From Acinetobacter phage Mokit, in the sequence record MW388002.1: 64,000 bases of DNA; one strand, given 5' to 3'. Under the pieces are notes generated by a model that was not told where the DNA came from, searched no databases, and was given only the letters and a program-made list of their open reading frames with translations. Positions 4,081-59,245 of this stretch are shown here, one piece after another; the first letter of the stretch is position 1, and every line of letters begins with the position of its first letter. Both the position numbers and the translations under genes were made by a program.

Positions 4081-6322
<2,242 letters not shown>

Positions 6323-12401: not shown

Positions 12402-13229
12402 ATGCTGAAAGATCAATTACTCAAGGAAGCTCAAGAAATTGAAGTTTCTGTAGAATTAGACGGTATTTTTGAATCAGTAGAACTTTCTGAAGAAATGCAA
12501 CAGAATTTTAAAACTGTATTCGAAACAGCCGTTAAAAAGAATGCTTCTGCGCTAGCTGAATCTCACATCTTAGCCATTGCTGAAAAGGCTGATGAACGTG
12601 TTAATGAAGAAGTTGAAGCACAAGTTAAAGCAGTTGAAACAAAACTAGTTGAAGCCGCTGACAAATTGTTTGAACATACAGCAAAAGAATGGTTAGCTGA
12701 AAACAAACTTGAAGTTAGTCGTGGTATTAAAGCCGACCTATTCGAATCAATGTTCGAAGGCCTTAAATCACTAGTTGTAGAACATAACATTGTACTTCCT
12801 GAAGAATCTGTTGACGTTGTTACTGAAATGGAAGAAGAACTTCAAGAACACAAAGAAGAAAATTCTAAGTTGTTTACTGCTTTGACCGAAACACAAGATG
12901 AATTAAAATCATTAAAACGTGAAGTTGCAGTAAATGAAGCTACTAGCGAATTGACTGAAAGCCAAAAAGAAAAAGTTCATAGCCTAATCGAAGGTCTTGA
13001 ATATGGCGATACATTCGAAAGTAAATTAGCTGCTATTGTTGAAATGGCTACTGCTACTAAGACTCCTGCGCCGATTGTTGAAAGCGTTGAAGGACGTTCA
13101 GAACCCGAAATAAATAATACTAACAATGATGCATCTGGTTTGAATTACATTGCTGAAGAACACCCAGCCGAAGAACCTGCACCAAATGCAAAAATCAACT
13201 CTTATGTAGCAGCTGCAAAACGCTTCTAA
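12402..13229 (+). CDS. 22: prohead core scaffold protein gp22
   Basis: 275 aa, highly acidic and alpha-helical with low complexity; synteny. Confidence 0.8.
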   Translation: MLKDQLLKEAQEIEVSVELDGIFESVELSEEMQQNFKTVFETAVKKNASALAESHILAIAEKADERVNEEVEAQVKAVETKLVEAADKLFEHTAKEWLAENKLEVSRGIKADLFESMFEGLKSLVVEHNIVLPEESVDVVTEMEEELQEHKEENSKLFTALTETQDELKSLKREVAVNEATSELTESQKEKVHSLIEGLEYGDTFESKLAAIVEMATATKTPAPIVESVEGRSEPEINNTNNDASGLNYIAEEHPAEEPAPNAKINSYVAAAKRF

Positions 13230-13255: not shown

Positions 13256-14836
13256 ATGTCTCAATTCAAACAAAAAACTAAAGAACAATTACTAGAAACT
13301 TGGGGAGATTTCCTCACAGCTGAAGGCCTTCCGGTAATTGACGAAAGCCGCCACGTAGTAATGGCAAAGATCTTTGAGAACCAAGAGCAAGATTTCCTTA
13401 CTGGCACAGAATACCGTGATCCCGAAATCGTTAAAGCATTCTCTGGATTCTTGACTGAAGCAGAAATTGGTGGTGACCATGGTTACGATGCAACAAATAT
13501 TGCTGCTGGTCAAACATCAGGTGCTGTAACTCAAATCGGTCCTGCTGTAATGGGTATGGTACGTCGTGCAATTCCTAACTTAATCGCATTTGATATTTGT
13601 GGTGTACAGCCTTTAAACGGTCCTACAGGCCAAATCTTCTCGTTACGCTCAGTATATGGTAAAGATCCATTAGCTGCTGGTGCTAAAGAAGCTTTCCACC
13701 CAATGCTATCTCCGGATACAATGCATTCAGGTCAAGGCGCTGCTGAAGCATTCCCAGTTGCTGCAGCAGGTGATGTACTTGCAATCGGTGACATTCGTCG
13801 TCATGACTTTGCTGATACCGGCCGTGTATACATTCAAGCAGTTAAAGCAGTAACAGTTGATGCAGATGCAACGACTCCTGAATTGTTAGACATCGAAGTT
13901 AAAAAACTAATGGAAGCAGGTACAATTGCCGAAATTGGTGAAGGTATGGCTACTTCGGTTGCTGAACTTCAAGAAGGTTTCAATGGTTCACAAAATAACC
14001 CTTGGAACGAAATGGGTTTCCGTATCGACAAACAATCAGTTGAAGTTAAATCTCGTCAATTAAAAGCTCAATACTCAATCGAACTTGCACAAGATTTGAA
14101 AGCTGTTCACGGTATGGATGCTGACGCTGAATTAGCTGGTATCCTTGCAACAGAAATTATGCTTGAAATCAACCGTGAAATCGTTGATTGGATCAACTTC
14201 TCAGCACAAGTTGGTAAAACTGGCTTCACACAAACAAGTGGTTCTAAAGCAGGTGTATTTGACTTCCAAGATCCGATCGATGTTAAAGGTGCACGTTGGG
14301 CTGGTGAAGCTTACAAAGCGTTGTTAATCCAAATCGATAAAGAAGCTTCAGAAATTGCTCGTCAAACTGGTCGTGGTATTGGTAACTTCATTATCGCTTC
14401 TCGTAACGTTGTAATGGCTCTTGCTCAAGTTGATGAACGTGTTAGCCCTGCCGCTCAAGGTCTTGCATCTGGCATGAACTATGACACAACTAAAGCAACA
14501 TTTGCTGGTGTACTTGGTGGTCGTTACCGTGTATATATTGACCAATATGCTCGTCAAGACTACTTCACAGTTGGTTTTAAAGGTTCAAGCGAATTGGATG
14601 CTGGTATTTACTACAGCCCATACGTTCCATTAACTCCATTACGTGGTTCTGATCCGAAAAACTTCCAACCAGTAATGGGCTTCAAAACTCGTTATGCAGT
14701 TGGTATCAACCCATTTGCAGATACATCAGCTCAAGCTCCTGCAGGTAATCGTCGTATTAGCAATGGTATGCCGACTATCGAGAATTCAGCTGGTAAAAAT
14801 GGTTACTTCCGCAAAGTTTTCGTTAAAGGAATCTAA
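13256..14836 (+). CDS. 23: major capsid protein gp23
   Basis: 526 aa; HK97-fold T4-type MCP; position. The strongest terminator in the window lies downstream. Confidence 0.9.
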   Translation: MSQFKQKTKEQLLETWGDFLTAEGLPVIDESRHVVMAKIFENQEQDFLTGTEYRDPEIVKAFSGFLTEAEIGGDHGYDATNIAAGQTSGAVTQIGPAVMGMVRRAIPNLIAFDICGVQPLNGPTGQIFSLRSVYGKDPLAAGAKEAFHPMLSPDTMHSGQGAAEAFPVAAAGDVLAIGDIRRHDFADTGRVYIQAVKAVTVDADATTPELLDIEVKKLMEAGTIAEIGEGMATSVAELQEGFNGSQNNPWNEMGFRIDKQSVEVKSRQLKAQYSIELAQDLKAVHGMDADAELAGILATEIMLEINREIVDWINFSAQVGKTGFTQTSGSKAGVFDFQDPIDVKGARWAGEAYKALLIQIDKEASEIARQTGRGIGNFIIASRNVVMALAQVDERVSPAAQGLASGMNYDTTKATFAGVLGGRYRVYIDQYARQDYFTVGFKGSSELDAGIYYSPYVPLTPLRGSDPKNFQPVMGFKTRYAVGINPFADTSAQAPAGNRRISNGMPTIENSAGKNGYFRKVFVKGI

Positions 14837-21845: not shown

Positions 21846-21861
21846 TGGTCCCTTTGCGGTT
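21837..21861. terminator. terminator hairpin GGGACC-TAAT-GGTCCC that overlaps the uvsW stop codon
   Basis: 6-bp GC stem followed by TTTGCGGTTT; lies between convergent genes. Confidence 0.55.
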
Positions 21862-22130
21862 TAGTAATTTTCATCACAGTCCTCACACATTTTGCGTTCG
21901 GCGATTGGATTATATACACGAACTTCAATACGTTTCCAACAATCACAATCTTCGCAATGAAAAATATGATCTTCTAACATATCAGTGAAATTTACCGAAT
22001 GCTTTAAGTCTGCATCAAGTCCTAATGACTCAAGTGTCTTAACTAGGGTATTGCCCCAAGTTTCTTCCATGCCATCTAACATATCAGCAAGTTCTTCAAA
22101 TTGGTCATCGGTAGGCATATCAAATTTCAT
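21861..22130 (-). CDS. hypothetical acidic protein with C-terminal CxxC…CxxC
   Basis: 89-aa ORF in the position where T4 has uvsY.-2. Confidence 0.5.
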   Translation of the reverse strand: MKFDMPTDDQFEELADMLDGMEETWGNTLVKTLESLGLDADLKHSVNFTDMLEDHIFHCEDCDCWKRIEVRVYNPIAERKMCEDCDENY

Positions 22131-22392
22131 AAGGTTTGCTCCAGAATGTTAGAATTTTGCCACATAGCTCGTCGTCACCTAAACTAAAGATGACTGAACA
22201 AATTTTATCATGATCTTCCTCATCAAAATATGCCAATAATTTAATCATTGACTCCTTTGTACCATCGGAAAATACTAAACATTTTCCAGCTTTATTACGC
22301 AAAGTAATTTCTTGGCACCAGTTATGTACTTCAAGTTTAAGTATGCCATGGTTTGTGTTGAGTGTCAATGCAGCTGTAGGTATAGTAAGCAT
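22120..22392 (-). CDS. hypothetical protein
   Basis: 90-aa ORF that overlaps its neighbours by a few nt (a coupled operon). Confidence 0.5.
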   Translation of the reverse strand: MLTIPTAALTLNTNHGILKLEVHNWCQEITLRNKAGKCLVFSDGTKESMIKLLAYFDEEDHDKICSVIFSLGDDELCGKILTFWSKPYEI

Positions 22393-22715
22393 TACTTGTA
22401 CTCCTTTTCATCAACATAAAATTCAATGTATTTTTCGGTATCCTTGGAACTTGCGTATGCTATTACAACACCACGTTCAAAATCAAAATCTTTGACCAAT
22501 AAGCGCTCATGCCATGGATCAATAGCCCAACCAAATGGAAATTTGCGGTATGGGCAAACGTAATGTACGTTACATTCTTCAACACCATTGAATTTTAGCC
22601 CAGGCGAACCTACAAATTGAACTACCCAACGTTCAGATGCATTACGTACCGATGGTACGTCGCATGTCAATTTTGTTGTTTCAGCGCGAAATGAAGTAAT
22701 TTTACGGTTGCTCAT
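22392..22715 (-). CDS. hypothetical protein (not UvsY-like)
   Basis: 107-aa ORF; no similarity to T4 UvsY. Confidence 0.5.
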   Translation of the reverse strand: MSNRKITSFRAETTKLTCDVPSVRNASERWVVQFVGSPGLKFNGVEECNVHYVCPYRKFPFGWAIDPWHERLLVKDFDFERGVVIAYASSKDTEKYIEFYVDEKEYK

Positions 22716-22790
22716 AATATTTTACTCATAATTATTAAGATAGAAGCATTATATACCACAAAAGGACCATAGTAAATAGTCCTTTTGTAG

Positions 22791-22958
22791 TTATTTTAGC
22801 TTTTTATCAGTGTATTTGCAACAAGGTACAAAATGAGAAATGTAGACACCTTGATCATGACAAGGACAACCACATTTCTTAATAATCTCATTCTGCTGTG
22901 CTGTTAGCACAGGTTTCCCAATTTTAAAAATCTTTCCAATCAACTTTACTAGCTTCAT
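22791..22958 (-). CDS. small Cys-rich protein (55 aa; CGCPCH…CCKY)
   Basis: Below the ORF-track threshold; hand-translated. Its ATG overlaps the stop of the upstream mini-ORF. Confidence 0.3.
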   Translation of the reverse strand: MKLVKLIGKIFKIGKPVLTAQQNEIIKKCGCPCHDQGVYISHFVPCCKYTDKKLK

Positions 22959-23122
22959 AGCAATAACTCAGTCTCTAGCAAAATGTCATCATTAGATTCC
23001 AAAACAGGTAAATCTTGAATGTGCTGCAAGCAGTGTCCAGGATGGACAGGTCCTTGATCAGTTTCAACTACCAGTGCTTCATCAATCGGCATCTTACATA
23101 CCGAACAAATACGTGTTTCCAT
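22955..23122 (-). CDS. small Zn-ribbon-like protein (55 aa; CSVCKMP…HPGHCLQH)
   Basis: Hand-translated; sits downstream of a middle-promoter-like element. Confidence 0.3.
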   Translation of the reverse strand: METRICSVCKMPIDEALVVETDQGPVHPGHCLQHIQDLPVLESNDDILLETELLL

Positions 23123-23187
23123 TATTATTCTCCTATATCGTATATATATTTATAGACTCTATACATCTAAATCATCAGAAACTCTAT

Positions 23188-23239
23188 CTTCTCCGACCAA
23201 ATAGATAAATTTAGAGCGGTGAACCGTAGAACCATTATA
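23188..23239. repeat. copy A of a ~53-nt dispersed repeat (CTTCTCCGACCAAATAGATAAATTTAGAGCGGTGAACC-GTAGAACCATTATA)
   Basis: Near-identical copy at 55199-55251 (one 1-nt indel). On the minus strand the repeat begins with TATAAT. Confidence 0.85.
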
Positions 23240-23303
23240 CCATACAAATTTTGTAAAGCATTTTATGCTTATAAATAAGGCGATTTATATGATCAAATTT
23301 TAA

Positions 23304-23702
23304 TCACTCTGATCTATCACCGCTTAATTGTATTTTAATTTGTTCTAATGTGTCAGGGTTATCTAGAATGCTAAATGTAACCGTAACAATTATTGCGTTA
23401 TTGTCATATTGTGCTTGCACTGCAACATTAAGTCTAACTATACGAGGTTCGTAGGTTCTAATTGCAGATGTTATGCTTTTTTCTACTGTGTTGACAGTCA
23501 GTGGTGACATATTTTCAAAAAGCGCGTTGCCAATGTCGCATCCAAATTCTGGATCAAATGGGCGAGAGCCTTTAGGTGTGGTAATAATTCCTAATAAGGA
23601 GTTTTTAACTGCTCTTGCTCCTACAGACGCTGCGACATCCATATTCCATGCACGAGTAAGTTCAGGAGAAATATCCGTGTAGAGGTCATTAATATTTTGC
23701 AT
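23304..23702 (-). CDS. 25: baseplate wedge protein gp25
   Basis: 132 aa, as in T4. SLLGIITTPKGSRPFDPEFGCDIGNALFENMSPLT is nearly identical to T4 gp25. Confidence 0.95.
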   Translation of the reverse strand: MQNINDLYTDISPELTRAWNMDVAASVGARAVKNSLLGIITTPKGSRPFDPEFGCDIGNALFENMSPLTVNTVEKSITSAIRTYEPRIVRLNVAVQAQYDNNAIIVTVTFSILDNPDTLEQIKIQLSGDRSE

Positions 23703-30997: not shown

Positions 30998-33079
30998 ATG
31001 TTAGATATGTTAACCGAATCACAATTAAATGAAGCGTTTGAAAGTGAAGATACTTATGACGTTATTGATCTTATGCCAAAGGCAAAAACTCCACAAATGT
31101 TTCTGCTCAAAGGTGAAGGGATCAGCAACTTAGTTGTCCGTTTAATGGGGCAAAAAGAAAATGGCGATACTTTGCGTAATTTATTGCCGACTGACAAAAA
31201 TGTTGTTGCGTTTATTATGACACTCAACGATAAAGGTAACTTAAGCGAACTCAAAGGTGGTCTTGGGGCAAATCCACTTAAATCTCTTGTGAGCATTTTT
31301 GATGCAGTTTATCATGCAATCAATGTGCCGATGGTACAAACAGTTATGTTCAGATTTCCTGCAAAGAAAATGGCAGGACAAGAGAAAAGTGTTCGTCGAA
31401 TTATGGAACGTTTGATTCAAATTCGCGGAAAAAGTAAATTTTCTGTACTTTCAGAATTAGCTAGTTATTCAGCAAAATATTCATATGTAGTAGCATATAA
31501 GAAAAATATCGAATTGACTGATATCCCTGGCGGGAAAATTGATCAAGAACGATTTAAACGTGTGGACACTAAAGTTGGCGAAGTATATGTTGACAACGAG
31601 ACAGGTAAAGAAACTTCTAAGGCTGAAGCTGTAGCTCAAGCAATTTCGACAGCTGTAAGTAAAATTACTACACAATCGGTTATTACTAAATCAAAAATTA
31701 GCCGACGTGAAGCTATGGCTGCAATGTATTCATCTTCACAATTTAAAACTCACGGTAAGGTTGACCCGGATGTTCTAAAATATGACAATACACATTCTGT
31801 TTATGCAGCAACAGGAAATAAAACTGAAATTCAGCAATTGATTAGTAAAGCTGATCTAAGTGAAGTAGGATCTTACTTAAAACAGTATGACCATAGAACA
31901 TGGGATGAAAATTTCACTTCGGCAAAACATATAACACACGTTCGTGATATGATCACGTCTAATATCAAAGAAATGCTTGGACATAGTTCGTCATCGGCTG
32001 AAGGTAAAGTCATTACTGCAAATGTTATTAAAGGCATTGGCAATATTGTTGCAGAATCAAATATCAAAGATTTACAATCAATGATGGTAAAAATTTCTGA
32101 ATTTATCTCTGCAACAGAGTTTGGCGCAATTGATAAACATTCTAGAATCATGTTTGTTAGAGGCATCATCTCTGCTCTTCTTTCAGGTCCTATCGGTAGC
32201 AAAATGCGTGAAGCATATACGTCTAAAACTGCAGAAAGAGATATTATTCGACAGTATTCTAAAGAGCAAATTGATGCCATTGTTGCATATACAGGGTTTA
32301 GCTATTCAGATATGAATGGATTCTTGCTAGGACGCAGTGAATCAGACGGTGAAATGCCTAAAATTGATATGTTAGATTCTGCATTTGCAAATGGTACAAC
32401 ATTAGAAAAGGGCACAATTTTGTATCGTGGGCAACGTGTTGCTATTGGACAGCTTAAATCAATTATGGACAACAAAACGTTGTATTTCCGTAATTTTGTT
32501 TCTACTTCACTTTATCCGGTAATTTATGGTGCCTTTGCAAATGCAACTGCAAACATTGAACCTACTGCACAAGACCAAACTACCTTCACTTCTGCTGATT
32601 TAGTAAAATCTACTGCATTTACGGATTCTCAACGCAATATTATTGCTTCTGGTGATGTTGGTGACACTAGTATGACTGCATCAATTGCGTTGGTAATTAA
32701 AGGTGCTGATAAAATTAATGTCATTGTGCCAGGTGCGGTTTCTTCATATCCTAATGAATGTGAAGTCATTTTGCCTCGTGGGACAATATTAAAAATCAAT
32801 AAGATTGTCGGTGAAACTGCTGATGAATATGTTGACAATACAATACTTATGGAAACAGTAGTAGTTGGACCTGATCAAATTGATGAGAGTGAAGATTTGT
32901 ATGACGGCGATTTATTCTTATCTGAAGGGAAATTAGAAAAGATTTCACCATCATTTGCAAATTTCTATACAAATGATGTAGAACTGAATGAAGCAGTTGT
33001 TCCGAATTCAGTCGAAGCTACAGAAATTTTATTATCGTTAATTAATCTTAAAGGACTTCCTGACAAGTTCTTGGATTAA
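30998..33079 (+). CDS. alt: Alt-like ADP-ribosyltransferase
   Basis: 693 aa (T4 Alt 682 aa). The R…STS…ExE triad is present (ILYRGQR; FVSTSLYP; NECEVILP). Position after gene 54. Confidence 0.85.
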   Translation: MLDMLTESQLNEAFESEDTYDVIDLMPKAKTPQMFLLKGEGISNLVVRLMGQKENGDTLRNLLPTDKNVVAFIMTLNDKGNLSELKGGLGANPLKSLVSIFDAVYHAINVPMVQTVMFRFPAKKMAGQEKSVRRIMERLIQIRGKSKFSVLSELASYSAKYSYVVAYKKNIELTDIPGGKIDQERFKRVDTKVGEVYVDNETGKETSKAEAVAQAISTAVSKITTQSVITKSKISRREAMAAMYSSSQFKTHGKVDPDVLKYDNTHSVYAATGNKTEIQQLISKADLSEVGSYLKQYDHRTWDENFTSAKHITHVRDMITSNIKEMLGHSSSSAEGKVITANVIKGIGNIVAESNIKDLQSMMVKISEFISATEFGAIDKHSRIMFVRGIISALLSGPIGSKMREAYTSKTAERDIIRQYSKEQIDAIVAYTGFSYSDMNGFLLGRSESDGEMPKIDMLDSAFANGTTLEKGTILYRGQRVAIGQLKSIMDNKTLYFRNFVSTSLYPVIYGAFANATANIEPTAQDQTTFTSADLVKSTAFTDSQRNIIASGDVGDTSMTASIALVIKGADKINVIVPGAVSSYPNECEVILPRGTILKINKIVGETADEYVDNTILMETVVVGPDQIDESEDLYDGDLFLSEGKLEKISPSFANFYTNDVELNEAVVPNSVEATEILLSLINLKGLPDKFLD

Positions 33080-45159: not shown

Positions 45160-47571
45160 TTATAGTTTGCATGCATCACAATCGGCAGAATTCGAATCAT
45201 CTGCACCAGAGCCATCGTCTGTGTTGTGATAATACATGTTTTTGTTTCCGTAATAGAAACAGAATAACATATCATCCATCATTTGTGACATAGGAACTTT
45301 ACCGTTTTCATAACTAACAGGCACGTAATATGTATTGATCGAAATCGCTTGATCTGTCCATTTTTGCTCAATAGCCATTTGTGTTAAGTAACCTTTGTTG
45401 CCATCACGAGCTGCAGATTCCCATGCAAAGTCATAAAATAATTGATTAACTTCATAGTTTGGAACTACTTGGTTAAATGATCCATCTTTAGACTGCTTGT
45501 ATGAGACAGGCTTCAGAGGTTTTTCAATGCCATTAGTTGAGTTTGATACTTGGCTTGATGATTCACAAGGCATTTGAGCTGATAATGTCACATTACGCAT
45601 ACCGAATTGTTTGAGGTCAATTCGTAATTCTTCCCAATCTAAGACATAGTTTGGTGCAACTAATTCATCAACATTTTTACAATACCAATCGATAGGCAAT
45701 TCACCACGTCCATATTTTGTTTTCCAAAGTTGAGGAGATGGACCTTTTTCTTTGGCTAACTCAATAGATGCTTTAATCAATGCATATTGTAAACGTTCGA
45801 ATAATTCATGCGTTAACTCATTGCCATCTTCATATGACGCTGCATTTGATGCTAACCATGCTGCATAGTTTGTAACGCCAATACCAAGCGAACGGTATTC
45901 TTTTGCTTTCAATGCATTTTTATGAGGGTAGTCTTGATAGTCTAATAAGTTGTCAAGTGCACGTACCATTACCATACCAATGCGATTGATTTCTTCTTGA
46001 TTTTTCCAATCAAAGTTATCAAGGACCCATGCACTTAAAGTACAGAGAGCAATTTCGCCGAGGTCTTCTTGAATGTTAAACGCGAGCTCATCTTTATCTG
46101 CTGCATAGTCTTTATCTACTCGTTTGAATAAATCAGAGTTTGTAGGTAATACAACTTGATTAGTACCGTAAGTTTCGATAAACTTAACAATATCACCAGT
46201 AGCAACTGCAAGACGTTGATCTTTATATGTACCTAATGCAACAGTATGTAGAGCAATTTCTGCACACAAGTTAGACATTTTTACAGGTGCAACTTGGCGA
46301 ATCCAAGGGCCGTAGTTATTGGTATTGTCAACATGAGATGGATATAAACGAGCTGTGTTAGCACGTTCTGTCATAAACAAGCCCATGAATAATTCAGATG
46401 CTTTAATACGTTTTTTGCGTACAGTTGGATCTTTCTCTAGTTTTTCATAGAGTTCACGGAATAGATTTTCATCTCGGAAAAATGCATCATAGAGTTTACC
46501 ACCCAATACATCTGGGCTAAACAGTGTAACATAATCATTAAGTAAATAACGCTCAATCATTAGGTTATTAATTTGGATGCCATAATCCATGTGACGGATA
46601 CGGTTTTCTTCAATACCTTTGTTGTTCTTAAGAACCATAAGGTTTTCGCATTCTAAGTGCCAAATTGGCCAATACATTGTAGCAGAACCTTTACGAATAC
46701 CACCTTGAGAACATGAATGTACTGCAGCATTTTTAAGTTTCCAGAAAGGTGTTACACCAGTATGTTTAACTTCGCCAGGACCAATCTTAGAACCTTCAGC
46801 ACGAATTGCACCACCCGCAATACCAATACCGGCACGTTTAGAAACATATTTTACAATTGCTGAAGTGCTTTCGGTAATTGAATCTAGGCTATCGCCAGTT
46901 TCAATGAGAACACATGAACTAAATTGGCGAGTCGGAGTACGAACACCTGCAAGAATTGGTGTTGGCAAAGAAATTTGTTTTAATGACGCTGCATCATAAA
47001 AATCTTTTACGTATTTGAAACGAAGAGATTGAGGCTCATCTTGATGCAAACACATGCCAATAAGCATGAACATAAATTGTGGTGTTTCGTAAATTTTACC
47101 AGAAGATCGATCTTTTACAAGATACTTATCTTTTACTTGCATTGCACCAGCATACGTAAAATTAAAATCACGGTCATGATCAAGAATACTTTCTAAAATT
47201 TCATAATCATCAGCTGTCCATTTTGTGAGCAATTCAGGATCGTATACGCCTTGCTCAACACCACTTTTAACATGATCAAATAATTTAGGTGGATCAAATT
47301 GCCCAAAGACATCTTTACGAAGTCCAAACAGCGCCAAGTTAGATGCAACATATTGGTAATCAGATTCTTCTGCACTAATAGAATCCGCTGCAACCTTTAC
47401 AATAGCACGTTGAATTTCTGTCGTCGACATGCCATCTTTAAAAAATGGACGGCATCGTTCAAATAATTCATACGGGTTGATTTGGGTACTTTCACAGGAC
47501 CATTCTAAAACTTGAATAATTTTAGATGAATCGAACTCTTGCGCAATACCACTTGACTTAATAACTTTCAT
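45160..47571 (-). CDS. nrdA: ribonucleotide reductase large subunit NrdA with N-terminal ATP-cone
   Basis: 803 aa; ATP-cone (VIKSSGIAQEFDSSKI); C-terminal Cys pair CDAC; synteny. Confidence 0.85.
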   Translation of the reverse strand: MKVIKSSGIAQEFDSSKIIQVLEWSCESTQINPYELFERCRPFFKDGMSTTEIQRAIVKVAADSISAEESDYQYVASNLALFGLRKDVFGQFDPPKLFDHVKSGVEQGVYDPELLTKWTADDYEILESILDHDRDFNFTYAGAMQVKDKYLVKDRSSGKIYETPQFMFMLIGMCLHQDEPQSLRFKYVKDFYDAASLKQISLPTPILAGVRTPTRQFSSCVLIETGDSLDSITESTSAIVKYVSKRAGIGIAGGAIRAEGSKIGPGEVKHTGVTPFWKLKNAAVHSCSQGGIRKGSATMYWPIWHLECENLMVLKNNKGIEENRIRHMDYGIQINNLMIERYLLNDYVTLFSPDVLGGKLYDAFFRDENLFRELYEKLEKDPTVRKKRIKASELFMGLFMTERANTARLYPSHVDNTNNYGPWIRQVAPVKMSNLCAEIALHTVALGTYKDQRLAVATGDIVKFIETYGTNQVVLPTNSDLFKRVDKDYAADKDELAFNIQEDLGEIALCTLSAWVLDNFDWKNQEEINRIGMVMVRALDNLLDYQDYPHKNALKAKEYRSLGIGVTNYAAWLASNAASYEDGNELTHELFERLQYALIKASIELAKEKGPSPQLWKTKYGRGELPIDWYCKNVDELVAPNYVLDWEELRIDLKQFGMRNVTLSAQMPCESSSQVSNSTNGIEKPLKPVSYKQSKDGSFNQVVPNYEVNQLFYDFAWESAARDGNKGYLTQMAIEQKWTDQAISINTYYVPVSYENGKVPMSQMMDDMLFCFYYGNKNMYYHNTDDGSGADDSNSADCDACKL

Positions 47572-47897
47572 AAATCCTCTATACTAAATTCGTCTTTAAA
47601 CAATTTGTTAACTACTGTAGCTATTATATCGCCATGACAAGCCTTTGGCTTACAAGTGCATCCTAAACGTTGACCACGTAAAACTTCTAAATGGTTACGA
47701 GTTATTTTACCATCTTTTATGAGATTGATAAAATATGCTTTAAATAGTGGAATTGCTTGATTTCCATGTTCCTCTACTGTAAATGGATTGCCCCAAATGG
47801 TGCCACGTTGTATATTAATATCATACTCGGATGAATATTTATTAACTACTCTACATACCTCAGATTTTCTCCAAAGGCGCATCTCAGTTGGTAACAT
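47568..47897 (-). CDS. DUF4326-family protein
   Basis: WGNPF…LGCTCKPKACHGD matches the DUF4326 signature (WGNPF…C.C.P..CHGD). Confidence 0.5.
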   Translation of the reverse strand: MLPTEMRLWRKSEVCRVVNKYSSEYDINIQRGTIWGNPFTVEEHGNQAIPLFKAYFINLIKDGKITRNHLEVLRGQRLGCTCKPKACHGDIIATVVNKLFKDEFSIEDL

Positions 47898-48114
47898 TTA
47901 TTTTCTCCTTTGTATCAGAAAAGTCAAGCAAGAAATATATAAATGCGGACCAGCAGAATGTAAATAATGCAGAAGTTTGGTCGGAGGTAGCGATGTATAC
48001 CAATGCGGCAAATCCACCTGCAATAGGAATCCCGAAGAACCAGAATTCCGTCATTGCAAATAAAATTTTAAGCAGCCATTTGAGCTTTGATTGCTTCATG
48101 ATGTTTGTATCCAA
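47884..48114 (-). CDS. small membrane protein (two predicted TM helices)
   Basis: 76 aa; FWFFGIPIAGGFAALVYIA and ALFTFCWSAFIYFLL hydrophobic segments. Confidence 0.45.
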   Translation of the reverse strand: MDTNIMKQSKLKWLLKILFAMTEFWFFGIPIAGGFAALVYIATSDQTSALFTFCWSAFIYFLLDFSDTKEKINVTN

Positions 48115-49018
48115 TTAAGGTGAAATCACCTACTACGGCCTTTTCAAAATCTTCAAGTGTCTTAAGATTTGGATTAATTGTAAGAATAGGCAAATCATAT
48201 TCTTCACGTGTCAATTGCTCTTTGACTTGCTCAATATGATTTTTGTAAATATGTACATCGCCAAGTTGTCCGGTTAAATAACGCGGTGTTTTGCCAAGAA
48301 TCTGAGCAAAAATTCGCAACAATGTAGCATAAGATGCAATATTAAATGGCAGCCCTAAGAATGTATCTACACTGCGCTGATGCCAAATCATATCAATAAA
48401 TTCGCCAGAAATATTAATTTGGAACCCAGTATGACATGGTGGCAAAATTGGCTTTTGGATTTCATAGTGTGACTCATAACCAGGTAGAGTTTTATGCTCC
48501 CAAATTAATTGTGGGTTCCATGCCTCGACAATTAGGCGTCGTGAGCCAGGATTGGCTTTTGCTTCTTTGATCATCTCGGCAAGCTGATCTACACCAGGAA
48601 CATCATGACAATATGTCCCGCCGAAATCTTCTTCAACATTGACACCGGTTGGCCCAAAGTTACGCCATTGAGTACCATACACTAATCCGCAATAACCATT
48701 AGAATAGCCAAGTTCTTTGCCTTGAACATTGTAATTGTCATCCCAAATTGTTTTCTTTTCATCATTAAATCGATGCTCTTCGCCGTGGGTCAATGCACGA
48801 AGATCATATAAATTTGATGAACCGCGGATGAACCATAATAATTCAGCGATCATCGATTTGAATGCAAGCTTTTTAGTCGTAACTGCCGGAAAGCCTTCAC
48901 GTAAGTCAAACTTAATTTGTTCGGCGAATATTGAAAGTGTACCTACGCCTGTGCGTTCATTGGTAACTTCTTCACCTTCATCAAGAATTTTTTGCAATAA
49001 ATCATGGTACGCTTTCAT
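48068..49018 (-). CDS. td: thymidylate synthase, uninterrupted (no intron)
   Basis: Active-site LPPCHTGFQI; YGTQWRNF folate-binding block; 316 aa. Confidence 0.85.
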   Translation of the reverse strand: MKAYHDLLQKILDEGEEVTNERTGVGTLSIFAEQIKFDLREGFPAVTTKKLAFKSMIAELLWFIRGSSNLYDLRALTHGEEHRFNDEKKTIWDDNYNVQGKELGYSNGYCGLVYGTQWRNFGPTGVNVEEDFGGTYCHDVPGVDQLAEMIKEAKANPGSRRLIVEAWNPQLIWEHKTLPGYESHYEIQKPILPPCHTGFQINISGEFIDMIWHQRSVDTFLGLPFNIASYATLLRIFAQILGKTPRYLTGQLGDVHIYKNHIEQVKEQLTREEYDLPILTINPNLKTLEDFEKAVVGDFTLIGYKHHEAIKAQMAA

Positions 49019-49063
49019 ATTTTGCTCCTAAACTATATACGACTATTATATACCAAAGAGCGC

Positions 49064-49309
49064 TTAAGCGCTCTCTAGAAAATTAAAAACGTCTAATCCA
49101 TTGAGTAAAGAAGCATTATTGATTGTAAGCTGCTCCATCGTCGACATGTTTGTTACAGTGTATCGAGGTGAAGTCGATTTATATGGGTGATTACTGGCAT
49201 TGTGCTCAATACGAATCTGATCGCCTTTACGAACAGAATTAAAGAATTTTGCAGTAGTGCGGCGTTTGATATCGACTACAGTAACGATTTTTGATAATTT
49301 AATAGACAT
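49064..49309 (-). CDS. hypothetical protein
   Basis: 81-aa ORF between frd and td. Confidence 0.4.
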   Translation of the reverse strand: MSIKLSKIVTVVDIKRRTTAKFFNSVRKGDQIRIEHNASNHPYKSTSPRYTVTNMSTMEQLTINNASLLNGLDVFNFLESA

Positions 49310-49844: not shown

Positions 49845-49850
49845 TATTCC

Positions 49851-50129
49851 TTAGTTAACTAATTTGATAAAGCCTTTACGTTCTTCAGCTGCACTAAAGA
49901 AACTCCATACTAAATCTGCAATAGGGCAGTCTTCAATTTCATGATACTCGTTTGTATCCATATTGAGAATAGAGATTGCATCCGGTGCACTGCTGAGAAT
50001 AGATTCAGTTTCAATTACCTTGAACTTTGCACCGAGCTTAAACTCCGGCATACGCAAAGAGATTTTTGCGTTGAATGGCTCATCAAGCCATTCTTGTGTG
50101 ATTTCATAAACGTTTCCTACTTCAATCAT
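49851..50129 (-). CDS. hypothetical protein
   Basis: 92-aa ORF. Confidence 0.4.
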   Translation of the reverse strand: MIEVGNVYEITQEWLDEPFNAKISLRMPEFKLGAKFKVIETESILSSAPDAISILNMDTNEYHEIEDCPIADLVWSFFSAAEERKGFIKLVN

Positions 50130-54038: not shown

Positions 54039-55109
54039 TCAAATGCAGTTGAGATCTTTAAGAAGTTTGGTTAACTTGTTTTTAACCATATATGAATATG
54101 TTTTGCCGCGTGGAGCAGGTGTGTATGATTTATATGCATCAATAATTGATTCACGAATATCATCACGAATATAATCAAAGTCAATTAATACACGATTGCG
54201 TTTGAAACGATGCATCCATAAGTCTGCGATTTTTGTTGTCATAACTGTAGTGTCGGTATATAATTCAGGAGATTGATCAACATCAATGCCTTGTAATTTT
54301 AGCAGTTTATGGCAATTTTCAACACCTACTTTTTTGTTTGATGTTTTTTTGGAAATTTCAGCCATAAATGCATTATACACTTCATCATCCGATTTGCCAA
54401 CAAGAGATTTAACAAAATCCGCAGATGTTGATGGGGTGCGTTCAGTGTCTTGGTCATATGTTAACCAGAAGTCGCCACGAACTTTAATCGATGCAACACA
54501 GTCTTTGCGATCGCCTTTTAAAACTTTAGTTAGACAATCTTCTTGTGGCGAGCCGGTCTTGACTTTTACAAATTTTTTCTGGACTGGTGAATATTGATCT
54601 AAATCTTCAATTTTATGAAGTTGTGTAAAGTCACCATCAGATGAAATAACACGGACCTTATAGCCATGAAGTGATAAATATTTAGATAGCACTGCAATAC
54701 AATCGTCTGCTTCACAATGGCGGACATCGATAATAATCCAAGGCATATTATCTTTTAATTCTTGAATAACAATTCCAAGAGCTTCAAAATAGCCTTCCCA
54801 ATCAAATGAATCAGATTCTTGTGCTTCAGCACGTGCAATCGCACGATTGCGTTTATAATAATCTTCTTCTTGTCGTCGCCAATATCCATAACGTGCATTA
54901 TCAATTGTGATAATGACTTTTTCATAGCCATCAGCTTTAAATTTTAATGCATTATGTTTAATTGTTGAGAGTACAAGTTGACGAACAATATCGGTAGTGA
55001 ATTTCATACCAGGTTCATGTGTAACTGCAACAGTTGCTAAAGCGATTTGTGACAAATCGATAAGTAGTGCACCAGGCTTTTCTGGTTCAAAAAAGTGGTC
55101 TAAACTCAT
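54039..55109 (-). CDS. rnh: RNase H / 5'-3' flap exonuclease
   Basis: From MSLDHFFEPEKPGALLIDLSQIALATV the protein aligns along its length with T4 RNase H (ICLIDFSQIALSTA…SSDGDFTQLHK…KKDNVASVKVR). The ORF-track start at 55163 is probably 18 codons too long; the ATG at 55107-55109 has an AAGGA RBS. Confidence 0.9.
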   Translation of the reverse strand: MSLDHFFEPEKPGALLIDLSQIALATVAVTHEPGMKFTTDIVRQLVLSTIKHNALKFKADGYEKVIITIDNARYGYWRRQEEDYYKRNRAIARAEAQESDSFDWEGYFEALGIVIQELKDNMPWIIIDVRHCEADDCIAVLSKYLSLHGYKVRVISSDGDFTQLHKIEDLDQYSPVQKKFVKVKTGSPQEDCLTKVLKGDRKDCVASIKVRGDFWLTYDQDTERTPSTSADFVKSLVGKSDDEVYNAFMAEISKKTSNKKVGVENCHKLLKLQGIDVDQSPELYTDTTVMTTKIADLWMHRFKRNRVLIDFDYIRDDIRESIIDAYKSYTPAPRGKTYSYMVKNKLTKLLKDLNCI

Positions 55110-55198
55110 ACTATTATCCTTCTTAAATGATAGAAATATTGTAAACAAAATATAATGAAGCAATCTGGATTATTCAGAAACACTGCGCAGCAGCTATA

Positions 55199-55251
55199 CT
55201 TCTCCGACCAAATAGATAAATTTAGAGCGGTGAACCGGTAGAACCATTATA
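55199..55251. repeat. copy B of the ~53-nt dispersed repeat (see 23188-23239)
   Basis: Identical to copy A except for one extra G. On the minus strand it begins with TATAAT, ~90 nt upstream of the rnh start. Confidence 0.85.
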
Positions 55252-55366
55252 ACATCAAAAAATACAGTTGTACACTATGCTTTACACAAATATGATTAAT
55301 AAATAATCATAAGAACCAATACTCGGCTTTTAATAAATATATGATAAGATAATCAAAGGAAATCGC

Positions 55367-58300
55367 ATGTCTGAAGTAAAAACAAGTTTCCGTGCGTCAT
55401 ACGGGTTGGACGCAGCTGGTGAAAAAGTAATCAATGTAGCAAAGGCTGACAAAACTGTCATGTCTGATGGTGTAAACGTTGAATACCTCATCCAAGAAAA
55501 CACAACCCAACAATATGACCCTTCTCGTGCATATGAGAAAGGATTTATTGTAGAATTTAACGGCCGTCTTTGGATGGCCGAACAGAATATTGCTAAACCT
55601 GCAGGAACATTCTTTGAAGGTTACTGGAAGCCATTGCGTACCGACCCTAAATGGTACCCATTTGATTCTGGCAAGTATCAATTAAAGGTTGGTGATTATA
55701 TTTCTGTTGATACACGTGCAGGTTTAGACGTAGAATTAACTTTACCAACATCCCCAGCACCACAAGAAGGCGACACTATTTCCATTAAAGATATTGGCGG
55801 CTTGACTGGGTATACTTCTGTTATTGTTATTGCCCCTGTTGAATCTATTGTTGATAAAGGCGCAAGCATCCCACAAAAACGTATGACTATTCCATTTTCT
55901 GAATGGACATTTGTTTATACGAAGAAGCAATGGTCATTATTCGACGGTGACGAGGCACCTGTGGCTCGCACAGTTGTACCAGGGGGACCAATTCGTGTTC
56001 AATCAGGTGAAACAATTATTCGTAATTATGATCGCCTTGCGCCTATTGTGTTGACATTCCCAAAATTCGCTAATAATGGCGATATTATCCACTTTGTAGG
56101 CATGAATCAAAATTCGGTACCATATTACCACCTAGAATTGAACACATTTGATTCTAATACAAGTATAATGTCTCCTGGCGTACACAAAGAGATATTCTAT
56201 CGTTCACTAAGTGGCTATTTTATTTACAATAGCTCATCGTCTACTTGGGTACTTTTTGACACAGATACAGTAGATCGACTACGAACTGTTAGTACTGATA
56301 CTGATTTGTTCCCTAATGAAACTGTCGCAGTAGTCGGTAAAGATAATGTAACTGCGCAAACAATTAAATTGACTCTGCCTGATAATGTGCAACCTGGTGA
56401 CCAAATCACTATTGCATTGAATTATATGCGAAAGGCTCAAACAGTTAATATCGTCCCTAAAGGGTCTGATATGATTTTGACTAATAAAAATCTTACACAG
56501 TTCCCTAAGCGTTCGAGTTATCCACCTGATGGCAATTGGGTCAATACCAACATTTTGTCATATAATGGAAACAGCGATTATCCGCCTGTGATTAAGTTTG
56601 CATACATTGATATGGGGCCTATTAAACAGTGGTTAATGGTCGACTGTATTCCTGCATTAGAACGCGTAGACCCTTCATCAGATGCAACACGTGGAAGATT
56701 AGGTGTCATTGCATTAGCTACCCAAGCTCAAGCGAATTTAGATAAATCTGCTATAACCGAGGCGGCTAAAGAAGTAGCTATTACGCCTGAAACTTTATCA
56801 AATAGAACTGCTACCGAGGCTCGCCAAGGTATAGCTAAAATTTCAACTAGGGCGCAGAACCAACTTAATACTGATGACGCTAATTATAACGATTTTGACA
56901 TAGTTACTCCTCTCAAGTTGAATCAAAAACAAGCCACTGAAACTATGCGTGGTCTTGCTGAAATTGCCACTCAAGCTGAAACGAATAGCAACACCGACGA
57001 CACAAGAATTATTACATCTAAGAAATTGGATGGACGTAGAGCTAGAACAGATCTTGCAGGCGTAGCTAAACTCGTTGCTGCTGGTGGTGTGGCACCGGTT
57101 AAGAATGGTACAAATACTCGAGATACTGTTGGTACTGGCATCTATGACCATACAGATTATGTTAACATTGTAACGCCAAAAACATTAAGAGAATTTTATT
57201 CTACCGAAATGGCTTTAGGTACAGTGTACTTAGCAAATTCTGCTGAAGTTATTTCTGGCGCTTCATCAGCAGCGAAGTACCCATTAGCTGTTACTCCAGA
57301 AACATTGCACACAAAAACTGCTACAGACGGTAGAATCGGTTTTACTCAGGTTGCGAATCAAACTGAAGTTAATGCCGGCACCGATTATTTTAAATATGTT
57401 ACGCCAAAAACATTAAATGATCGTAAAGCTACAGAAGCTTTGACCGGTATTGCTAAACTTGCAACTCAAGCCGAGTTTAATGCTGGCACTGCAGGACTAA
57501 TCTCTGGCCCAGATAAAATTAAAGCATATTTGTCTACACCTTCACGTACTGCGGTAGTTGCCGCATCTGGTTTGACACAGGCCGGCAACCTTTGGACTAC
57601 AACAACATTTGATATTGTTGCACCTACTGAAACACAACGTGGTACAACACGATTAGCTACTCAAACTGAAGTTAATGCCGGCACTGATGACATCACTGTT
57701 GTTACTCCTAAAAAGTTACATGCTAAAAAGGCTACAACTGCTGCAGAAGGTATTATTAGAATTGCTAATACTGCAGAGACTATAGCTGGAACTTCTGGCA
57801 CTACCGCTGTATGTCCAGTAAACTTAAAGCAAGTAATACAAGTCGAGACGTCTTGGGAGGCTTCAGCTTCTTTGCGTGGTCCGGTAAAAATCTCTAGCGG
57901 TTCGATTACATTTGTAGGAAATGATACTGTTGGATCAACAGCAGATATTGAAACTTATGCTAAGTCCGGATATGCGATTTCACCATATGAGTTGAATAAA
58001 ACTCTTGTGAATTACATGCCATTGAAAGCTAAGGCTGTAGATTCCGATAAATTAGATGGAATTGACTCTACTCAGTTCATCCGTAGAGATATTAATCAGA
58101 CTGTTGAAGGAAGTTTAACATTCACTAGTCCTACATTGTTTAATGATCGTGTTGACATACGTGAAATGTTAGAAGTGGGCAAAACTTCAGGTGAATCACT
58201 TAACACAGACAATGGCAAGCTACGTATGGTTTCTGGTGCTGTAGCTCCTCGAGCTTGGGCATTTGCGATACATGACGGTAATGTTAATGGTGTTGGCTCA

Positions 58301-59245
58301 TCTACACTTAAATTTGGCTATAAGTATCTTAGCGCTCAACCAGGTCCTATTGACATTGTTGCATATGAAATTCATCATTCCGGTGCAATTAAATTCAACA
58401 ATACTTTAAATGTAGTTGGTGCGACGACAATAAACAACACACTAAATGTTTCAGGTATCGTAAGTACAGACTCTGTCGGATTCCGAATTGCTGGATTTGA
58501 TGCGTTGACGGCAGTCTCAGGACAAACTAAAGTAGGTACTACTACACGTGGTCTAGACTTGATTGCAACTGATGCTGCATTTATCCGAGCTTTGGATTCA
58601 GGCACAGTATATACTGTAATGACAACAAAAAATCGTGCAGGGATTTTAGATCCATTATATGTCAAGAAGTCTGGTGACACTATGACTGGTAGATTAAACG
58701 TCAGCCAGCCTATTACTGCTACAATTCCTCAGTCTTTGGCTACGCCTAATGCTGTACCTAATTCTAACAACTTTGGTACATGGACAATCGATATTACTGA
58801 TCCTGCAATTTATAATACTATGCGCCCGTATCTTGTAGGTGTCTATGCCAAAAATGAAGAAACTGGTGCTACACTACCATGGTATGATAAGTATGATGAA
58901 TTCAACGGACCTGGTACGTTGTCTCAATTTGGATCATCTGCGTCTAATGGCTCAGGTACATATCAAATTTGGGCGCCACGCCCGCCAGCAGATAAAGCAA
59001 ATCTTCCTGGACATATTGCAGGAACTATGTGGTCCCGTCAATGGAATCCTGCAACAAATCATTGGGATGGCTGGGGTAGAATGTTTACAAACAATCATCC
59101 GCCGTTACCACAAGATATTGGTGCTATGAGTAACAATGGTTCGGTCTTTGATTCTATGCGCATCAGAGATTGGATACAAATTGGCAATTTAAGAATCTAT
59201 GCGAATCCGGAGACAAAAACTGTTCGCTTTGATTGGATAGAATAA
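55367..59245 (+). CDS. 34: long tail fibre proximal subunit gp34
   Basis: 1292 aa (T4 1289 aa). The N-terminus MSEVKTSFRASYGLDAAGEKVINVAKADKTVMSDGVNVEYLIQENTTQQYDPSRAY aligns with the T4 gp34 N-terminus. Confidence 0.9.
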   Translation: MSEVKTSFRASYGLDAAGEKVINVAKADKTVMSDGVNVEYLIQENTTQQYDPSRAYEKGFIVEFNGRLWMAEQNIAKPAGTFFEGYWKPLRTDPKWYPFDSGKYQLKVGDYISVDTRAGLDVELTLPTSPAPQEGDTISIKDIGGLTGYTSVIVIAPVESIVDKGASIPQKRMTIPFSEWTFVYTKKQWSLFDGDEAPVARTVVPGGPIRVQSGETIIRNYDRLAPIVLTFPKFANNGDIIHFVGMNQNSVPYYHLELNTFDSNTSIMSPGVHKEIFYRSLSGYFIYNSSSSTWVLFDTDTVDRLRTVSTDTDLFPNETVAVVGKDNVTAQTIKLTLPDNVQPGDQITIALNYMRKAQTVNIVPKGSDMILTNKNLTQFPKRSSYPPDGNWVNTNILSYNGNSDYPPVIKFAYIDMGPIKQWLMVDCIPALERVDPSSDATRGRLGVIALATQAQANLDKSAITEAAKEVAITPETLSNRTATEARQGIAKISTRAQNQLNTDDANYNDFDIVTPLKLNQKQATETMRGLAEIATQAETNSNTDDTRIITSKKLDGRRARTDLAGVAKLVAAGGVAPVKNGTNTRDTVGTGIYDHTDYVNIVTPKTLREFYSTEMALGTVYLANSAEVISGASSAAKYPLAVTPETLHTKTATDGRIGFTQVANQTEVNAGTDYFKYVTPKTLNDRKATEALTGIAKLATQAEFNAGTAGLISGPDKIKAYLSTPSRTAVVAASGLTQAGNLWTTTTFDIVAPTETQRGTTRLATQTEVNAGTDDITVVTPKKLHAKKATTAAEGIIRIANTAETIAGTSGTTAVCPVNLKQVIQVETSWEASASLRGPVKISSGSITFVGNDTVGSTADIETYAKSGYAISPYELNKTLVNYMPLKAKAVDSDKLDGIDSTQFIRRDINQTVEGSLTFTSPTLFNDRVDIREMLEVGKTSGESLNTDNGKLRMVSGAVAPRAWAFAIHDGNVNGVGSSTLKFGYKYLSAQPGPIDIVAYEIHHSGAIKFNNTLNVVGATTINNTLNVSGIVSTDSVGFRIAGFDALTAVSGQTKVGTTTRGLDLIATDAAFIRALDSGTVYTVMTTKNRAGILDPLYVKKSGDTMTGRLNVSQPITATIPQSLATPNAVPNSNNFGTWTIDITDPAIYNTMRPYLVGVYAKNEETGATLPWYDKYDEFNGPGTLSQFGSSASNGSGTYQIWAPRPPADKANLPGHIAGTMWSRQWNPATNHWDGWGRMFTNNHPPLPQDIGAMSNNGSVFDSMRIRDWIQIGNLRIYANPETKTVRFDWIE

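Follow-up and report, generated by a model that had tools for sequence, protein, structure and literature searches.

Why would a phage genome carry one short sequence, nearly letter for letter, in two unrelated leader regions 32 kb apart? We addressed this question in a 64,000-nucleotide (nt) stretch of Acinetobacter phage DNA (the window; presented as phage Mokit, MW388002.1), in which a preliminary description had pointed out a repeat of about 53 nt and had proposed that it is the common 5' leader of two transcripts. Window coordinates equal record coordinates minus 96,381 in the related numbering of phage Melin (MW388003.1, 167,969 bp; Straboviridae, Twarogvirinae, Hadassahvirus). Genome comparisons showed the repeat to be the core of a positionally conserved family of self-contained cassettes, each made of a predicted promoter and a predicted untranslated leader; two members are non-coding and antisense to their neighbours. 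In phage T4, the counterpart in the slot of one window copy is, by position and promoter layout, PuvsY/oriF. We tentatively read the five cassettes as origin-type transcription units that would make a primer or R-loop RNA, and we put the probability of this reading at roughly 0.4.

A repeated promoter and leader in the window

Two exact occurrences of the 38-mer CTTCTCCGACCAAATAGATAAATTTAGAGCGGTGAACC were found in the window (23188-23225 and 55199-55236), compared to none in 100 dinucleotide-preserving shuffles. The identity of the two copies, A and B, runs on to 23239 and 55251, respectively, and their sole difference is one inserted G on the plus strand (a C/G indel). No other long exact interspersed repeat was detected in a repeat scan of the window. 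Exact matching and shuffles thus confirmed the repeat at 23188-23239 and 55199-55251, and its context had also been described correctly: copy A lies between gene 25 and a Zn-ribbon open reading frame (ORF), and copy B lies between rnh and gene 34. The parts of the two copies are:

23188..23239, minus strand: copy A (family member c4), TATAAT (23234-23239) and leader core GGTTCTAC-GGTTCACCGCTCTAAATTTATCTATTTGGTCGGAGAAG, with a 1-nt deletion relative to the other copies
23240..23274, minus strand: upstream part of the copy A promoter, with TGG (extended -10), a 14-nt spacer and the MotA-box-like TGCTTTA (23254-23260)
23150..23187, minus strand: type II tail of copy A (ATAGAGTTTCTGATGATTTAGATGTATAGAGTC...), AT-rich (25% GC over +41..+100) and rich in TTAGATG/CTGATG motifs
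55183..55255, minus strand: copy B (family member c5), TGT-TATAAT (55246-55254), leader core and the start of a type I tail (TATAGCTGCTGCGCAG)
55269..55274, minus strand: early-type -35 TGTACA of copy B, with a 17-nt spacer to TATAAT; TTTACA in phage KARL-1

Both copies open with TATAAT on the minus strand, and the two promoter layouts that had been suggested for them were found as well. In copy A, TGCTTTA stands 14 nt upstream of TATAAT in a MotA-type arrangement, and copy B has the early-type arrangement of TGTACA, a 17-nt spacer and TGn-TATAAT. The copy B promoter agrees with the consensus at 10 of 12 positions and was the top sigma-70-type site of its region. At the copy A promoter the sigma-70 scan made no call, as is expected for a -30-box site. 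A short inverted repeat (AAGCAT..ATGCTT) has the TGCTTTA of copy A as its 3' arm.

Five copies in fixed slots

When copy B was compared with phage genomes by BLAST, it matched 255 places in 50 records, all of them T4-like phages of Acinetobacter, with five or six places per genome. The search for further copies that had been advised was therefore productive, and recurrence in each of 50 independently sequenced genomes refutes an assembly artefact. BLAST against the whole Melin genome, which was reconstructed, found five copies, two of them in the window. Their positions, given as the first T of TATAAT on the element's own strand in record numbering, are:

c1, 14305, plus strand: just beyond srd (srd gap)
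c2, 48402, minus strand: among ORFs splitting the DNA polymerase gene
c3, 79936, plus strand: gap between genes 3 and 2
c4 (copy A), 119620, minus strand: in the window
c5 (copy B), 151632, minus strand: in the window

Copies c1 and c3 are antisense to both of their neighbours, and c2, c4, and c5 are co-oriented with theirs. Copy B is identical to the stand-alone copy c1 over 73 nt (55183-55255), and the first ~17 nt of the copy A tail (window ~23171-23187) are common to the antisense copy c3. KARL-1, which belongs to another genus (Lazarusvirus), has all five loci with the same gene-relative orientations as Melin. AbTZA1 and Kimel also have five copies each, at the loci and in the orientations seen in Melin.

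The sixth "place" counted in KARL-1 corresponds to the terminal overlap of its record. This linear record (MH713599.1) opens and closes inside c1 (1-101 and 166445-166545), and c1 equals c2 over ~100 nt; the record ends are probably an assembly break at the repeat and not a physical genome end. The DNA polymerase locus around c2 is annotated differently in the two phages. It is one gene "interrupted by an intron" in Melin (46198-50655) and two "split DNA polymerase" cistrons, separated by six small ORFs, in KARL-1 (134427-139114). With c2 and a terminator among these ORFs, it looks like a split gene more than an intron.

An invariant 20-mer of the repeat had no exact match in 185,579 bacterial/archaeal genomes or in JGI metagenomes. 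In IMG/VR, true matches were limited to AbTZA1 and Kimel, and the other sub-string matches were judged to be chance hits to GC-rich or coding DNA. From this we conclude that only the Hadassahvirus/Lazarusvirus clade has the exact sequence. Because the 20-mer had no exact match in bacterial/archaeal genomes or metagenomes, we rejected both host-sequence mimicry and wider environmental spread.

Counterparts in ZZ1, T4 and RB69

Phage ZZ1 (Zedzedvirus, NC_018087.3) has promoter-plus-leader units in the slots of c1, c3, c4, and c5. The unit in the c1 slot lies antisense in the srd/tk.4 gap and has a bidirectional terminator at its end, and the unit in the c3 slot lies antisense in the gap between genes 3 and 2. 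The ZZ1 leaders form subtypes, with c1 resembling c4 (G-rich) and c3 resembling c5 (CCCCTA repeats); each pairing had p <= 0.0005 in shuffles. In ZZ1 c3, a second box, GGTCGGGAGAGATATAGG, is located 36 nt past -10, which is the same spacing as in Melin. In ZZ1, a 10-mer of the c4 leader (TAGGGGATAG) is also the exact complement of a 10-mer of the c3 leader (CTATCCCCTA). Different ZZ1 cassettes may therefore yield RNAs that can pair, or the complementarity may be chance.

Four origins annotated in the T4 record serve as reference points for the slots:

oriF, 115321: between gene 25 and uvsY; the primer is the uvsY transcript, minus direction
oriG, 152947: inside gene 34; the primer runs opposite to gene 34
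oriE, 79355: inside gene 5; the primer is antisense to gene 5
oriA, 16763: in gene 56; the primer is the gene 56 transcript

The promoter and leader of PuvsY read AATGCTTCA-N13-TATAATGAATCTAAGTCCATCCAAT…, with the start 7 nt past -10. Copy A matches oriF in slot and direction (gene 25/uvsY cluster, minus), and like PuvsY it has a Mot box and a TGn-TATAAT promoter. By these sequence features, PuvsY/oriF is the T4 counterpart in the copy A slot; such a positional match to an origin was found for c4 only. T4 has further copies of the PuvsY promoter and leader, which occupy the slots of c1 and c3 and are antisense as in Melin:

NC_000866.4 75968-76060 (Mot box at 75968), plus strand: PuvsY paralogue …TATAATGGGTCTAAGTCCCTTCCATT…, antisense in the gap between genes 3 and 2, the c3 slot
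NC_000866.4 11866-11950, plus strand: PuvsY paralogue …TATAATGAATCTAAGTCCTTCCATT…, antisense in the srd/modA gap, the c1 slot

Both paralogues have MotA-box/TGG-TATAAT promoters, and their leaders copy that of PuvsY/oriF (TCTAAGTCC..TCCAWT). The string TATAATGRRTCTAAGTCC has exactly three matches per complete T4-type genome in IMG/VR. In ~500 Tequatrovirus records, the 99-nt gap between genes 3 and 2 of T4 shows a conservation of at least 95%, and it carries no annotation. Among the 58 mapped middle promoters tabulated for T4 (PMC2988021), PuvsY stands at 115371 and P34i at 153011, and there is none at ~11.9 or 76.0 kb. In the T4 counterpart of the c5 slot, the gap between rnh and gene 34, we found one ordinary early promoter only.

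The same pattern was predicted beforehand for RB69 and was found there. The RB69 gap between genes 3 and 2 contains an antisense GCTTTA-N12-TATAAT followed by the leader GGTTTTAGGTCTCTTCCATT…, which is similar to the leader of the RB69 gene 25/uvsY promoter (GGTTTTAGGTCCTTCCGAT…; p <= 0.0005). RB69 has another copy, its third, upstream of rnlB, with GGTCGGAGATAGAG 34 nt past -10. Shuffle tests linked the rnlB leader to the leaders of Melin (p ~ 0.0015) and of the T4 srd/modA copy (p <= 0.0005). As far as these comparisons reach, the architecture at the slots is much older than the exact sequence. A literature search on T4 oriB/oriD and on antisense middle promoters returned nothing relevant.

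Anatomy of the cassettes

Every copy has the extended -10 element TGnTATAAT. In c1, c2, and c4 of Melin and in all KARL-1 copies except c5, TGCTTTA is located 14 nt upstream of -10. The c3 box is degenerate in Melin and clear in KARL-1, and c5 has an early-type -35 with a 17-nt spacer instead of a MotA-like box. Melin encodes both MotA and AsiA. From the T4 PuvsY start, we infer that Melin transcripts begin at the A of ACCGG, 7 nt past -10.

About 30 ordinary early promoters of Melin share GTTTAC-N17-TGnTATAAT-RGTYNTATCAAATCA (e.g., those at record positions 19428, 26164, and 34364, minus strand); a candidate in the window lies at 35226. Since the first 9 nt of the repeat (GGTTCTACC) fit the consensus RGTYNTATCAAATCA, they represent generic promoter-proximal sequence; the family-specific part starts at ~+10. 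Many early promoters also show an inverted repeat that brackets -10, such as GATAGAAC…TATAAT…GTTCTATC, in which the spacer is complementary to the first transcribed bases.

The untranslated leader is conserved over 45-100 nt. It contains an invariant box, GGTTCTACCGGTTCACCGCTCTAA (…CCGGTTCACCGCTCTAA), then an AT-rich spacer, and then a middle module of one of two kinds. Module X is purine-rich (GGTCGGAGAAG..ATAGAG) and is present in Melin c1, c3, c4, and c5, and module Y is a small hairpin, present in Melin c2 and in KARL-1 c1 and c2. The tails are also of two types. The type I tail of c1 and c2 consists of the adjacent GC hairpins GCTGC[TGC]GCAGC and CGGCGC[TTC or TGT]GCGCCG; of these, the c5 tail has just the first in Melin and neither in KARL-1. 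AT richness and an enrichment in TTAGATG-like motifs mark the type II tail of c3 and c4. Over +1..+40, the leaders have a GC content of 42-50%, compared to 36% for the genome and 27 +/- 4% for ordinary early leaders, and the tails of c1 and c2 are the most GC-rich 27-nt windows of the genome.

At their ends, c1 has a bidirectional terminator (record 14426-14447) and c3 a terminator (record 80033-80058), both called by a tool. The predicted RNAs, of ~135 nt for c1 and ~115 nt for c3, contain no ORF. Coding potential in the repeat was considered and rejected: the ATG of TATAATG opens a 17-codon ORF in copy B, and this ORF is frameshifted by the indel in copy A.

Leaders of the lambda nut and HK022 put type make RNA polymerase terminator-resistant. 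That the cassettes work in this way, by loading such a factor, seems very improbable to us. Identical or near-identical leaders do stand behind several promoters on both strands, as in lambda nutL/nutR, and CGCTCTAA agrees with lambda boxA (CGCTCTTA) at 7 of 8 positions. However, c1 and c3 head no operon, and they carry terminators at their ends, a feature conserved in ZZ1. The versions in ZZ1, T4, and RB69 lack the boxA-like string, and no antiterminator (N- or Q-like) gene was identified.

Selection and exchange between copies

Between Melin and KARL-1, the leader is 87-93% identical over +1..+30. The identity is 55-74% in the upstream non-coding region (-90..-21) and 52-66% at the third codon positions of gp25, gp3, and gp2. 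This comparison shows the predicted transcribed part of the cassette to be under selection. The earlier view of the conserved block as a transcribed leader, as opposed to upstream promoter DNA, is supported.

Three inter-genus substitutions (AAATTTA -> AATTATA, TTTGG -> TTCGG) are found in all relevant copies of each genome. A 1-nt deletion, TACCGG -> TACGG, is shared by Melin copy A and by c3, c4, and c5 of AbTZA1. The similarity of paralogues inside one genome was significant in a shuffle test (p <= 0.0005). In these alignments the family is seen to evolve in concert in each genome, with copies that evidently exchange sequence. The two palindromes which the preliminary description had offered as structural features did not survive the comparison. 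The ACCGGT palindrome is dispensable, being lost through the 1-nt indel in copy A and in the three AbTZA1 copies, and AAATTT is AATTAT in every KARL-1 copy.

An invariant box over the start site could also be a DNA operator, in which the direct repeat GGTTCTACC/GGTTCACC binds a phage regulator that switches the five promoters together. The box is invariant in two genera and in all copies; it spans from just past -10 to ~+18, where repressors act, and its concerted change in each genome fits co-evolution with a phage-encoded protein. We nevertheless hold this explanation to be improbable. The loss of 1 nt between the half-repeats is tolerated, as copy A and three AbTZA1 copies show, conservation reaches +45 and up to +100, beyond a protein-sized site, and the first 9 nt are the generic promoter-proximal consensus. 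No candidate regulator was identified.

A further explanation starts from the known PeSL/PmSL elements (promoter-early and promoter-middle stem-loops), which consist of a stem-loop followed by a sigma-70 or Mot-box promoter and are repeated in T4-type genomes (PMC2839356, PMC4122927; Arbiol 2010, Comeau 2014). The suggestion of a mobile promoter cassette or recombination hotspot, made as an alternative in the preliminary description, came near to the known kinds that the family resembles, namely such elements and the T4 origins. A cassette of this kind would insulate and restart transcription and spread by recombination and gene conversion, and the leader would be a by-product of duplication. 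The Mot-type box is the 3' arm of a stem-loop just upstream of -10 in c2 of both genera, in KARL-1 c1 and, imperfectly, in c4; at c2 this stem-loop is an annotated terminator. It is absent at Melin c1 and c3, and c5 has a half-site. Copy c2 sits between DNA polymerase cistrons, where PeSL-like sequences were noted in other phages (PMC2839356/PMC4122927). The downstream consensus RGTYNTATCAAATCA, which the first 9 nt of the repeat fit, is shared with ~30 ordinary early promoters. Like PeSL/PmSL elements, the cassettes are a plausible substrate for homologous recombination and gene conversion, and the concerted evolution described above is compatible with PeSL-style exchange between copies.

We still consider this explanation unlikely. 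The homology is mostly downstream of -10, in 45-100 nt of transcribed leader, and is much longer than PeSLs. There are five copies in slots that are fixed across genera and partly belong to the core genome, in contrast to dozens in hyperplastic regions next to ORFans. The antisense copies c1 and c3 have no downstream gene, with neither a Shine-Dalgarno sequence nor a start codon, and their orientation is kept from T4 to the Acinetobacter phages, which a restart promoter would not predict. Conservation far above the level of neutral DNA shows that the leader is no passive by-product.

RNA structure and a possible role of the RNA

The preliminary description had also proposed a structured element and folding as a check. 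The hairpin of the 47-nt core was rejected, with z = -1.07 and two pairs broken in KARL-1. Full-length units folded with z from -0.7 to -2.2, and in the consensus fold of seven type I copies the two GC hairpins alone were retained. Their stems are the same in every copy, which made a covariation test on the type I copies uninformative. The Y hairpin occurs in three variants, UAGCC/GGaCUA in Melin c2, UAGCU/GGaCUA in AbTZA1 c2, and CUGCC/GGuaCAG in KARL-1 c1 and c2. Read directly from the sequences, they differ by two double compensatory changes and one wobble change.

Searches with Rfam 15 gave no match in the window at gathering thresholds. Near c1 (E <= 1), weak matches only were returned, far below gathering scores (18-26 bits), and they covered the terminator region and not the leader. 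A resemblance to signal recognition particle RNA, seen by eye, had no Rfam support. Type I-F repeats of CRISPR (clustered regularly interspaced short palindromic repeats) also begin with GTTCAC; a mimic of such a repeat was discarded, as a comparison by eye with the type I-F repeat revealed no repeat-like hairpin after GTTCAC. A RegB site was likewise dismissed: the consensus GGAGRAYARAA (PMC3014915) was matched at four of the seven positions after GGAG.

These data bear on the possibility that the function lies in the RNA itself. Copies c1 and c3 would then be genes for small non-coding RNAs of ~135 and ~115 nt, and the leaders of c2, c4, and c5 would act in cis or be processed off the mRNA. 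The module might have a common binding partner, either a protein or an RNA, such as one of the ribosome/S1 type or the nuclease type at its purine-rich GGAG box. It might thereby serve transcript stability, translation control, or titration of a host factor. With several copies behind strong promoters, the dosage would be high. Consistent with this, c1 and c3 stand alone with a promoter and a terminator, and strong purifying selection acts on the transcribed part and not on the upstream DNA. The middle (Y) hairpin shows compensatory changes, and the twin GC hairpin stems are kept while the second loop goes from UUC to UGU. The purine-rich box has a fixed distance from -10, 36 nt in Melin and in ZZ1 c3 and 34 nt in RB69. 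According to a T4 review, no trans-acting small RNA (sRNA) is characterised in T4, and relatives might supply candidates.

We regard an RNA-level function, the chief competitor of the origin proposal below, as possible, yet doubtful. No Rfam family matches, the folding z-scores are weak (-0.3 to -2.2), and the consensus fold lacks covariation, its stems being invariable. In some copies the second box is swapped for an unrelated hairpin, and past +25 there is no RNA motif common to all five. The RegB consensus fits only partly, and complementarity to the rest of the phage genome is no longer than 11-13 nt. The leader differs wholly among Melin, ZZ1, and T4, which a conserved host partner would not predict. 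An RNA-level function also leaves unexplained why sequence was replaced wholesale between lineages while position and orientation were kept.

Genes next to copies A and B

The genes and additional promoters around the two window copies are:

23304..23702, minus strand: gene 25 (baseplate wedge), the immediate upstream neighbour of copy A and the marker of the slot that PuvsY/oriF takes in T4
23147..23154, minus strand: TATAAATA, resembling a late promoter, in the interval from copy A to the uvsY.-2-like ORF; kept in KARL-1
22955..23122, minus strand: Zn-ribbon ORF of 55 amino acids, DUF2685/UvsY.-2 homologue (PF10886, E = 4e-23; annotated as UvsY.-2 in ZZ1)
55138..55162, minus strand: MotA-type promoter of rnh, TGCTTCA-N12-TACAAT, between copy B and the rnh start codon (record position 151543)
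54039..55109, minus strand: rnh (RNase H), downstream of copy B; start set at the MSLDHFF methionine
55367..59245, plus strand: gene 34, for the proximal subunit of the long tail fibre; divergent from copy B

The sequence TATAAATA corresponds to the T4 late consensus (PMC1524935). Since the uvsY.-2-like ORF has this late-type promoter of its own, which is kept in KARL-1, it is independent of the promoter in the repeat. With rnh also served by its own promoter, the leaders of copies A and B are not needed for the expression of either gene. The idea of one leader for two genes therefore holds in part. The leader is shared, but the family has five members, two of them lack a downstream gene, and rnh and the Zn-ribbon gene have promoters of their own.

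In the gene 25-uvsW cluster (window 21861-23122, minus strand), the UvsY.-2 homologue (DUF2685) is accompanied by four small ORFs without a Pfam match. The cluster has no recognisable uvsY, unlike in T4 and RB69, and uvsY is therefore elsewhere in the genome or absent. In T4, uvsY.-2 is important for infection according to a CRISPRi-ART study (PMC11879866). Elsewhere in the window, the repeat scan found 39-nt direct repeats with three members of 67-82% identity (family D1; 4140-4178, 13179-13217, and 31460-31498), which probably reflect a shared peptide motif of structural genes. A "tRNA-Pyl" with the anticodon CTA is annotated in the Melin record (77062-77136) and in ZZ1 (76199-76269); it is possibly an amber suppressor tRNA.

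The cassettes as possible origin-type transcription units

A T4 origin consists of a middle promoter and a downstream element with a persistent R-loop (PMC3016281). At oriF, the transcript persists downstream in an R-loop, and RNase H very likely processes it into the leading-strand primer (PMC3016281). The promoters PuvsY and P34i drive T4 origins (PMC2988021). We tentatively take the cassettes to be origin-type because the T4 member in the copy A slot is PuvsY, that is, oriF. That the transcript, or transcription as such, has a role would agree with the non-coding, antisense, and terminator-bounded state of c1 and c3 and with the redundancy of the promoters at c4 and c5. Primer transcripts that are antisense and non-coding have precedents in oriG and oriE, whose primers run antisense to genes 34 and 5, and copy B shares its direction with the oriG primer RNA.

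In this proposal, the useful product would be a short untranslated transcript, or its synthesis, and not the expression of a downstream gene. Early or middle transcription from each cassette would lay down a primer or R-loop RNA. The transcript would stay in place as a persistent R-loop, would probably be processed by RNase H, and would prime leading-strand synthesis, and transcription would also open the duplex for helicase loading. The conserved boxes are putatively recognised by a shared factor, or they may stabilise the hybrid. Incidentally, the cassettes would become recombination hot spots, where gene conversion would keep the copies alike; homogenised copies fit because high recombination is expected at origins.

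Several findings weigh against the origin proposal. Apart from c4, the positions agree poorly: c5 and c3 lie 2-3 kb from oriG and oriE, c1 lies several kb from oriA, all three distances falling within 2-5 kb, and c2 matches none. The similarity between Melin and T4 leaders is not significant in direct comparison, so that the link is positional and transitive via RB69, and T4 oriG has no shared leader (p = 0.056 in shuffles). The MotA-like boxes are 14 nt from -10, whereas most other middle-promoter candidates of Melin have 12-13 nt and the T4 Mot box consensus spacing is 12 +/- 1 nt (PMC2988021 table). T4 origin function depends on an A+T-rich unwinding element and not on a specific sequence (PMC3016281). 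We looked for such an element and rejected it for the core, which in contrast to oriF is GC-rich (42-50% GC over +1..+40); only the c4 tail is AT-rich (25%).

The conservation of the leader is a further difficulty. Because T4 origin function is reported to be sequence-independent downstream of the promoter, the origin model does not explain why the Melin leader is so strongly conserved, and this conservation, together with the compensatory changes in small hairpins, would fit an RNA-level role at least as well. Screens with T4 origin plasmids recovered oriF and oriG only, not the two antisense copies (PMC3016281). In the literature on these Acinetobacter phages, we found no replication, R-loop, or transcript data.

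Beyond phages, ColE1 RNA II and the mitochondrial light-strand promoter are primer-RNA origins, in which conserved blocks determine a stable RNA-DNA hybrid (also mentioned in PMC3016281). The cassettes resemble them in working principle only, with a strong promoter and a structured untranslated RNA whose conserved blocks would determine such a hybrid. There is no homology in sequence or structure, and those replicons have one origin each.

Implications

The five fixed slots, the concerted evolution, and the presence of two uncharacterised antisense oriF paralogues in T4 were unexpected. How replication starts in T4-type phages is settled in detail for only two T4 origins, and there is no motif common to T4 origins (PMC3016281). 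The family provides five candidate sites in therapeutic Acinetobacter phages. In T4, the two conserved antisense copies of the oriF promoter and leader can be approached with genetics and origin-plasmid assays that already exist. For genome annotation, exact 50-100 bp repeats are points of recombination or mis-assembly in these genomes, as exemplified by the KARL-1 record ends, and several annotations put "hypothetical protein" ORFs over cassette copies.

If the cassettes act through RNA, they would provide candidate trans-acting or leader RNAs, of which none has ever been characterised in T4-type phages. More broadly, and still with more doubt than confidence, we suggest that Tevenvirinae and Twarogvirinae carry an unrecognised, positionally conserved family of promoters with non-coding leaders, in which oriF and the two antisense T4 units would be members and concerted evolution would keep the members of each genome alike. 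This family may be either a true set of transcription-primed origins or the first functional sRNA family in T4-type phages.

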